A stretch of DNA of 53,298 nt from a virus (lineage: Duplodnaviria > Heunggongvirae > Uroviricota > Caudoviricetes). The position numbers and the translations under genes are program-made. Where the stretch lies: the IMG/VR virus record IMGVR_UViG_2558860170_000008; one strand, 5' to 3'. The notes beneath the pieces are model-generated. The model made no database searches and was not told the origin of the DNA. It was given only the letters and a program-made list of their open reading frames with translations. Positions 51,890 through 53,298 of this stretch are shown here, piece by piece. How positions within the stretch are numbered: position 1 is the stretch's first letter; every line of letters starts with the position of its first letter.

Positions 51890-52731
51890 ATCATCTCCTT
51901 TCCATTGGTTAATTTATCGGAAATTCATCCCCACTAACTAAAACGATCCACACAATAAAACTAAATCTAATTGCAGGCAATCAATTCCAGTCGATATATC
52001 ATCTGTATGGAAATCATCGCTCATCACTCATCGCAGCCTGAAAGCCCAGAGCAACGGGGCAGGTCTGCATATAAGTGGTTACACGGCAGAATTCCAGAGG
52101 GTTCTGTCACTAAATTCAGTCACTGACAAATTTGCATGATGTTGAATAGACGAGATTTTGTGTCGAAATAGTTGTTTCAGTAACTGTCACTCAATCGGTG
52201 GTTTATGTGACTATATTCGCAAAAACTGGTCGCAGAAAAGTCCTGTTTTCAGCTTGGAAACCCGGTAATCAGAATAATGGATAGGGGAACAAAAATCTCT
52301 GTATAGAACGCTCCATTGAGGGAGAGAAAACGTGTCATTTTGACCCGTTCGGTATTCAGAACACACAAAACCGATCGCGGGTCGCTTTCGTGCATAGTTA
52401 TGCAACGCGCTAAAAACGATTCTGACGCATTTTTTATGTTTACCCTGTTTTTTCTTGTCTTTTTGAGTTTTTTGCGTCAGAGAGCGTCTGAGAGGGCACG
52501 TACAACGGGAGTTATGGTAAATGGATCGGGTTTTCGGGAAGGTTCGACAGGATTTGCCGTTGGGTGTAGTGTAAGCGACTGAAAAACAAACGCCCCTGAA
52601 ATCATGTCCAGATCCGGCAGAACCAGCCTCATGCGCAGTTCTGGCTGGTTTTTGACGTTGATCGCGAGGGGGCAGCGATTGACTGGAGCGACCGGAACGC
52701 TCCCGCGCCGAACATCACCGTAAAAAATCCT

Positions 52732-53298
52732 GTGAACGGTCATGCTCACCTGCTCTACGCGCTCAATATCGCCGTGAGAACCGCGCCGGACAGCTCGGTT
52801 AAGGCGCTGAAATACGCCGCTGCGATTGAACGTTCGCTGTGTGAGAAACTTTGTGCTGATGTGAACTACAGCGGACTGATTTGTAAAAATCCGTTCCACC
52901 TGGAATGGCAGGTGATGGAGTGGCGAGAGGAAGCCTATACCCTCGATGAACTGGCTGATTATCTCGATTTGAGCGCCTCAGCGCGCCGTAGCATCGATAA
53001 ACATTACGGGATGGGGCGAAACTGCCACCTGTTCGAAATGACGCGCAAATGGGCTTACAGGGCGATTCGTCAGGGCTGGCCCGAATTCTCACAGTGGCTT
53101 GATGCCGTGATTCAGCGTGTCGAAATGTACAACGCATCGCTTCCCGTTCCGCTTTCACCGCCTGAATGTCGGGCTATTGGCAAGAGCATTGCGAAATACA
53201 CGCACAGGAACTTCACGCCGGAAACTTTCGCACAGTATGTGGCTGATACGCACACATTAACGTACGTTTTCGTTCCATTGGCCCTCACCCCCCGATAA
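52732..53298 (+). CDS. Plasmid-type replication initiation protein homolog (Rep/primase-like); runs off the window end; 5' region apparently disrupted
   Basis: ...NGHAHLLYALNIAVRTAPDSSVKALKYAAAIERSLCEKL...GRNCHLFEMTRKWAYRAI...; the conserved-looking segment QFWLVFDVDREGAAIDWSDRNAPAPNITVKNP continues in frame upstream to ~52612 with no start codon, preceded by a stop. Confidence 0.5.
   Translation: MNGHAHLLYALNIAVRTAPDSSVKALKYAAAIERSLCEKLCADVNYSGLICKNPFHLEWQVMEWREEAYTLDELADYLDLSASARRSIDKHYGMGRNCHLFEMTRKWAYRAIRQGWPEFSQWLDAVIQRVEMYNASLPVPLSPPECRAIGKSIAKYTHRNFTPETFAQYVADTHTLTYVFVPLALTPR

Follow-up and report, generated by a model that had tools for sequence, protein, structure and literature searches.

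Anatomy of a probable ColE2-type replicon relic in a module of large enterobacterial plasmids

According to our analysis, the right-hand end of the 53,298-nt stretch of DNA studied here (the window) very probably carries an inert relic of a ColE2-type replicon (class C theta, PlasmidFinder type Col156), lying within a module widespread among the large plasmids of enterobacteria. Three elements are required in an intact ColE2 replicon: a Rep primase composed of an archaeo-eukaryotic primase (AEP) domain, a PriCT-1 domain, and a C-terminal DNA-binding region; an origin of about 32 bp located right after the rep stop codon; and RNAI, an antisense RNA that base-pairs with the leader of rep and controls copy number. 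Rep primase, origin, and RNAI are all destroyed at this locus, and the relic fails to show four of the six features that define a ColE2 replicon, namely, a complete open reading frame (ORF) with its own start and N-terminus, the C-terminal DNA-binding part, the origin, and RNAI. It is thus a fossil of the ColE2 family and not a working member.

The fragment would make no Rep, would be unable to initiate replication, and would exert no ColE2-type incompatibility; it probably persists as neutral hitchhiking DNA that is still reported as a replicon by typing tools. A relic of this sort is already known, is nothing new in kind, and needs no new mechanism. The added value of the analysis is modest and consists of the exact anatomy of the locus, a warning for Col156 typing, and signs of ongoing exchange with small plasmids.

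The rep pseudogene and the limits of the retained replicon

The plus-strand frame that is open from 52600 to 53298 (...KNKRP*NHVQIRQNQPHAQFWLVFDVDREGAAIDWSDRNAPAPNITVKNPVNGHAH..., start mod 3 = 1) encodes residues 40 to 254 of a 311-residue ColE2-type Rep primase. Megablast against plasmid sequences returned 1,314 records, the informative ones being small Col156-typed plasmids with rep annotated as intact. As intact comparators we used pSCU-387-3 (6.2 kb; NZ_CP051691.1; rep at 810 to 1745, 311 aa) and three other Col156 plasmids of 5.1 to 6.1 kb. When the intact 311-aa Rep of pSCU-387-3 was compared with the window by tblastn, only residues 40 to 254 matched, at 52612 to 53256 on the plus strand, with 97.7% identity and an E value of 1e-144, which is far above chance. 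Within this rep pseudogene body (codons 40 to 254 of 311) lie the AEP and PriCT-1 domains and the beginning of the origin-binding region; a start codon and the C-terminal 57 residues are missing.

The stretch from 52612 to 53298 matches the Pfam Replicase profile characteristic of the AEP domain (PF03090; E = 5.8e-40), though only partially, at profile positions 17 to 130 of 130 and therefore without the N-terminal end of the profile. [quoted passage not shown] AEP motif I (FDVD, 52651 to 52662, plus strand) and the GHAH motif (52738 to 52749, plus strand), as defined in PMC5862659, both lie in frame. The initial annotation had described a Rep/primase-like gene stemming from a small theta-replicating plasmid, and both parts of this description are borne out, the source being of the ColE2 type with the PlasmidFinder label Col156. 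With respect to the ColE2-P9/ColE3-type Col156 plasmids (pSCU-387-3 and the 5.16-kb plasmids), the rep body is 93 to 96% identical at the DNA level, and the order of the domains, AEP primase and then PriCT-1, is the same. Unlike these plasmids, the relic lacks the start codon, codons 1 to 41, most of the RNAI/target hairpin, the C-terminal 57 residues, and the origin.

The sequence upstream of the rep body (52071 to 52602, plus strand) is the ColE2-type rep leader, or upstream region, which is noncoding in the intact plasmids. By blastn it corresponds to leader positions 192 to 734 of pSCU-387-3 with 92% identity, while window positions 52612 to 53256 correspond to 927 to 1571 of the same plasmid, i.e., rep codons 40 to 254, with 96% identity; about 190 bp of pSCU-387-3 between its two matched blocks have no counterpart. 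In the alignment, the window tracks pWP3-W18-ESBL-07_3 to the break (...CCCCTGAAATCATGTCCAGATCCGGCA) and then resumes at ...GAACCAGCCTCATGCG within rep, and the 185 bp absent relative to this plasmid in the multiple alignment consist of 60 nt of the leader end and 125 nt of the coding start. Most of the RNAI hairpin, the ribosome-binding site, the ATG, and about 41 codons (codons 1 to 41) were lost in this deletion of about 185 bp.

An imperfect 8-bp direct repeat flanks the deletion: its upstream copy is ATCCGGCA, and its downstream copy, AT(A/C)CAGCA across the intact plasmids, is ATACAGCA (in pSCU-387-3, ATCCAGCA). At the joint in the window (52612 to 52619, plus strand; repeat positions and size were computed from the alignments) a single copy of the repeat, ATCCGGCA, remains. 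The 185 bp may have been lost between the imperfect repeats by slippage or by illegitimate recombination.

In ColE2, RNAI binds the 5' untranslated region, and the 32-bp origin lies downstream of rep (PMC6856555). When the strand antisense to the leader was folded for the four intact plasmids, it yielded a long hairpin, CGCCCCUG...CAGGGGCG, followed by UUUGUUUUU, and this predicted hairpin with its T-tract has the shape of an intrinsic terminator ending an antisense RNA. On the basis of the published organization of ColE2 (PMC6856555, PMC5304414), the hairpin is deemed to belong to a putative RNAI. A search of 51800 to 53298 against Rfam at a permissive threshold found no matching family; since Rfam has no model for it, we infer RNAI only from the folding of the intact homologues. 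Consensus promoter and terminator scans of the leader, both in the window and in pSCU-387-3, gave nothing useful, the loop of the hairpin being too long for the scanner.

The alignment places the opening of the deletion in the loop of the antisense hairpin. What is left in the window, with the boundaries of RNAI taken as putative, is the 3' arm CAGGGGCG with the T-tract, that is, the 3' end of the putative RNAI gene (52581 to 52611, minus strand). The remainder of the hairpin, as well as the body of the putative RNAI and its promoter, would have lain within the deleted segment.

The gene had been supposed to run off the window. Instead, similarity to Rep breaks off at 53256 (codon 254), directly at the inner edge of a solo terminal inverted repeat of the Tn3 family (37 bp, TTAACGTACGTTTTCGTTCCATTGGCCCTCACCCCCC; 53257 to 53293, minus strand), and the frame runs for 13 codons through the repeat (...THT-LTYVFVPLALTPR*) and closes inside the window at a TAA (53296 to 53298, plus strand). 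The repeat has 92 to 97% identity to the ends of genes annotated as Tn3-family transposases (matching stretch, 53257 to 53294); its outer GGGG end, at 53293, faces right, and its inner end abuts rep codon 254. It presumably resembles Tn1000 specifically. RefSeq annotates such Tn3-family ends as belonging to the ISEc63 family.

A terminal inverted repeat of about 38 bp starting with GGGG, as found in Tn3-family transposons, is thus present, and the likeness to Tn3-family ends (Tn1000/gamma-delta-like) lies in these 37 bp and in the GGGG outer end. In contrast to such transposons, the repeat is solo: a search of the window found one copy only, and there is no transposase gene, res site, or partner repeat in the window, which ends 5 bp past the outer end of the repeat. 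In the alignment, the inner side of the repeat is occupied by rep and not by tnpA, so a simple insertion into rep is ruled out and further deletion must have occurred. A second break joined codon 254 to the inner end of the solo repeat, with the loss of the last 57 residues and of the origin.

The structure of the ColE2 Rep DNA-binding domain (PDB 3VW4) aligns to Rep residues 170 to 269 and its chain extends further. Because the chain continues past codon 254, the relic stops midway through the DNA-binding domain and, with homology ending at residue 254 of 311, lacks the helix-turn-helix (HTH) part of the C-terminal origin-binding region. ColE2 Rep unwinds origin DNA via its PriCT-1 and HTH domains (PMC5862659), and a minimal ColE2 origin depends on Rep provided in trans for its replication (PMC3163176). 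In pSCU-387-3 an origin-like core, TATCAGATAACAGCGCC, directly follows the rep stop codon, consistent with the published 32-bp origin. The same core, allowing up to 3 mismatches, gave 0 matches in the window, where rep is not followed directly by an origin of about 32 bp. The locus has neither Rep nor origin.

When the four small plasmids were compared with the whole window, the replicon fragment that remains was found to measure 1.19 kb (52071 to 53256). Farther to the left, the minus strand at 51127 to 51321 codes for the N-terminal 65 residues of a protein with a C39 peptidase domain (66% identity to its pSCU-387-3 counterpart), and about 200 bp of the region upstream of this gene are also present with 72% identity. 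The C39 fragment and the replicon fragment are collinear with pSCU-387-3 in order and orientation, and therefore the captured DNA may originally have comprised more of a small plasmid of the bacteriocin type. The initial annotation spoke of an integrated small-plasmid-like element, which is fair as to where the DNA came from but not as to its present state, since only fragments are left and no mob gene, origin, or complete cargo gene remains in the window.

Spread, typing, and exchange with small plasmids

The relic is a single ancient object that has been inherited widely. Both the deletion joint and the joint between rep and the repeat are base-identical in pECOED, pA1.S1.126.c3, pZH193, and pWP4-W18-ESBL-09_1. 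A 94-bp probe over the rep-repeat junction (a match being defined as coverage of 80% or more) was found in 474 of 5,426 complete E. coli genomes (about 9%), once in each, and in a broader search of complete E. coli genomes the relic lay on large plasmids in 1,601 of 1,604 places. The 46-nt deletion joint, looked for as an exact match in GTDB with one genome per species, gave 0 matches, a result that says nothing about spread among species outside the plasmid collections.

The left-hand neighbors of the relic are conserved and comprise an IS3 remnant, two hypothetical genes, a DUF6404 gene, and a colicin-E1-type immunity gene, and the right-hand neighbor in the plasmids examined is cjrABC-senB. 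The pseudogene found upstream of cjrABC-senB in pUTI89-like IncF plasmids and in pECOED shares with the window both the joints and the left-hand neighbors. The pUTI89-like copies match only from 52185, whereas a further 114 bp or so of the leader (52071 to 52184) are retained in the window and in pECOED. The common junctions offer a precise clonal marker for the module. The plasmid pECOED itself is IncK2/Z.

In the copies examined, PGAP labels the gene as a partial pseudogene, [quoted passage not shown] MOB-suite assigns rep_cluster_2131 to both relic-bearing plasmids for which typing is shown, pECOED and p6-Pyelo_1. Papers on senB-carrying or pUTI89-like F plasmids routinely list a "Col156" replicon, one of them reporting "a mosaic IncF and Col156 origin of replication" (PMC10591226); a literature search for an explicit account of the relic, as a remnant or truncated Col156 replicon or as cjrABC with ColE2, found only typing tables. 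Where a Col156 call lands on the relic in a large plasmid, what it detects is a gene fragment without start codon, origin, or copy-control RNA, and for this reason such a call should be taken as evidence neither of a replicon nor of incompatibility.

Sister copies have decayed further and independently, which indicates that the ORF is not maintained: pECOED has a nonsense change, GAG to TAG, at the position equivalent to 52666, and pZH193 has a 19-bp frameshifting deletion. A site-by-site comparison showed that relic copies with identical junctions are mosaics. At some 30 variable sites, the copy in pWP4-W18-ESBL-09_1 has the bases of the intact pWP3-type plasmid, that in pECOED contains a pSCU-type patch at 52534 to 52565, and the window joins a pECOED-like leader to a rep body identical to that of pA1.S1.126.c3. 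Furthermore, about ten large plasmids (pN10c, the VR50 plasmid, and others) show the same truncation at the repeat together with an undeleted 5' end, and these undeleted ends share 98 to 100% identity with the common 5.16-kb Col156 plasmids. Both partners, i.e., a relic-bearing large plasmid and a 5.16-kb Col156 plasmid, occur together in strain VR50.

The simplest reading of the mosaic and the undeleted copies would be repeated gene conversion from coresident functional plasmids; alternatively, the undeleted copies could be surviving intermediates in which the 3' cut preceded the 5' deletion. Gene conversion of this kind would carry signatures of purifying selection into a dead gene. In pairwise comparisons of relics with intact genes, dN/dS was low (0.06 to 0.16); as a sign of constraint these values were rejected, since the site pattern shows wholesale import from intact donors.

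It is conceivable, although in our judgment unlikely, that the relic constitutes a standing homology patch through which resident small Col156 plasmids and large conjugative virulence plasmids exchange DNA repeatedly, probably forming transient cointegrates. If so, this would explain both the mosaic alleles and the rare "repaired" copies that regain leader, RNAI, and ATG, and a RecA-dependent ride for the small plasmids during conjugation would be possible.

More doubtful still is a role in cis for the fragment, either as a homology patch of about 1.2 kb for recombination (cointegration, conduction, or gene conversion) between small Col156 plasmids and large conjugative ones or by means of a surviving rep promoter reading into the downstream cjrABC-senB genes. 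The mosaic relics with identical junctions, among them the patches in pWP4-W18-ESBL-09_1 and pECOED, would fit such a role, as would the restored or retained 5' ends of about ten large plasmids and the presence of both partners in VR50, but recombination between homologous DNA is expected whether it is selected or not, and the data point to no fitness benefit. As for the promoter, cjrA has its own upstream region, with what we take to be a Fur-box-like sequence. Moreover, some relatives of these plasmids have lost the relic (PMC10591226).

The open frame from the GTG codon

Reading upstream, the Rep frame is closed by a TGA at 52597 to 52599 (plus strand), which lies within the leader sequence of the intact plasmids; the initial annotation had put this stop near 52609. 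Past the TGA, the first in-frame ATG, GTG, or TTG is the GTG at 52732 to 52734 (plus strand), equivalent to Val80 of the intact Rep in alignment numbering, and the ORF listing gives from it an ORF of 188 aa (52732 to 53298). It had been noticed that Rep sequence extends upstream of this GTG without any earlier start-type codon, and the ORF listing and translation agree. The gene had accordingly been thought to be truncated at its 5' end, and it is: intact homologues do not start at the GTG, as they would if the ORF were complete, but 79 codons upstream of it. The 188-aa ORF is formally open in the window, a point that counts against regarding the locus as inert.

One may therefore ask whether a shortened but functional protein is made from the GTG, for instance one acting as a dominant-negative Rep to keep out incoming Col156 plasmids. 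Such a protein would run from Val80 to codon 254 with 13 residues encoded by the repeat appended; its ORF is open both in the window and in pA1.S1.126.c3, and it would still contain PriCT-1 along with some of the origin-binding region. We nonetheless hold it to be very improbable. The GTG sits 3' of catalytic motif I (FDVD), which the protein would lack, and the sequence ahead of it, ACCGTAAAAAATCCT, contains no purine-rich ribosome-binding site. In pZH193, a 19-bp frameshifting deletion (52998 to 53016) falls inside the GTG-initiated ORF, and in VR50, where relic and 5.16-kb Col156 plasmid reside together, no exclusion is obvious.

The upstream frames and the nature of the 5' lesion

The initial annotation had also proposed that the gene is frameshifted and that alignment to intact Rep genes would place the frameshift. 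In that case the N-terminal codons would lie just upstream in another frame, from which a single indel or programmed frameshifting could restore them. Open frames in other phases do exist upstream, at 52316 to 52582 and at 52604 to 52723, as had been observed. The alignment, instead, placed the 185-bp deletion and no frameshift, and tblastn with Rep residues 1 to 39 against all frames of the whole 53-kb window gave nothing better than an E value of 0.3. The 5' lesion is a deletion and not a frameshift, because the first 39 residues are encoded in no frame of the window and the 185 bp that carry the N-terminal codons are absent from the DNA alignment; a frameshifted gene is hardly credible.

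The longer of these upstream frames, an 88-aa ORF at 52316 to 52582, is no displaced Rep N-terminus. It has no Pfam match and, as a single frame, is not conserved in the intact plasmids, in which it is present as two separate frames that indels specific to the window have fused.

An error of assembly or sequencing as the source of the disruption in the window, which stops 5 bp past a transposon repeat as is typical of a short-read contig break, can be dismissed, given that both joints are identical in four of four other complete plasmids and that the rep-repeat joint occurs in 474 complete genomes. In the leader, a 10-bp and a 1-bp deletion (indels at 52446 and 52486) are found in the window and pECOED only, the three other relic copies and the two intact plasmids compared lacking them. 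The left 44 kb of the window resembles an ipaH gene and a Mu-like prophage.

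Probable exchange between the relic and small Col156 plasmids

The copies of the rep relic carried by the large plasmids pWP4-W18-ESBL-09_1, pECOED and pN10c were compared with window positions 52185-53298, and copies with identical junctions turned out to be mosaics of differing small-plasmid alleles. In some large plasmids, including pN10c, VR50 and others, the relic is truncated by the repeat and has an undeleted 5' end, which matches Col156 plasmids of 5.16 kb with 98-100% identity. VR50 has both partners, namely, the 5'-undeleted relic and a 5.16-kb Col156 plasmid. Taken together, the mosaic copies, the 5'-undeleted relics and the VR50 pair point to gene conversion or cointegration between the relic and resident small plasmids.

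At the joint at window 53256/53257, rep lies against the inner edge of a Tn3-family terminal repeat. The inner boundary of this solo repeat is nearly exact at the joint, where no obvious microhomology between rep and the repeat was detected. The rep leader contains an open frame of about 61 aa (…SVFRTHETDRASLSCIVMQ…FAFFA.ESD), located at positions 425-610 of the compared plasmid sequence L001 and at equivalent positions in L005, L006, L007 and L003, which is uninterrupted in every intact Col156 plasmid examined and in one relic. Its openness may be due to chance within a conserved regulatory region.

Decayed and conserved genes beside the relic

Comparison with pSCU-387-3, a 6.2-kb Col156 plasmid with an intact rep, identified a fragment of a C39 peptidase-domain gene of the bacteriocin-export type on the minus strand at window 51127-51529. 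The fragment codes for the first 65 residues, with 66% identity to the pSCU-387-3 gene, and about 200 bp of the region upstream of this gene is also present in the window, with 72% identity. Since the layout of the fragment is collinear with that of pSCU-387-3, the comparison suggests that a bigger piece of a small plasmid may once have been captured.

A colicin-E1-family microcin immunity gene occupies window 50759-51094 on the plus strand. The gene is intact and encodes 111 aa in pA1.S1.126.c3, a large plasmid carrying the relic; in the window, a TGG-to-TAG change at 50954-50956 splits it into ORFs of 65 and 34 aa, and it is therefore a second pseudogene of the relic module. Only the start of a lipoprotein-like gene (MNKKITGLLIISLASIFLIDC...) is found, on the minus strand at window 51815-51889; the gene encodes 131 aa in pECOED, whereas in the window, where about 712 bp of the pECOED sequence is missing at this gene, a stop follows after 25 codons. 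Two overlapping hypothetical genes (86 and 196 aa) and an opposed DUF6404 gene, at window 49416-50630, are conserved neighbors of the relic on many plasmids. The second of the pair, of 196 aa, sits amid dense overlapping ORFs on both strands.

The left 44 kb of the window

The left 44 kb looks quite unlike the plasmid module in content. Positions 1-4076 carry an ipaH-type gene for a type III secretion system effector and a prophage tail-fiber remnant, a region that matches a Shigella flexneri record at 99% identity. From 4077 to about 43700, the window resembles a Mu-like prophage, encoding a tail sheath, tape measure, Com and Mu transposase, and between this prophage and the relic module lies an IS-rich stretch with elements of the IS66, ISSso6, IS600 and IS3 families.
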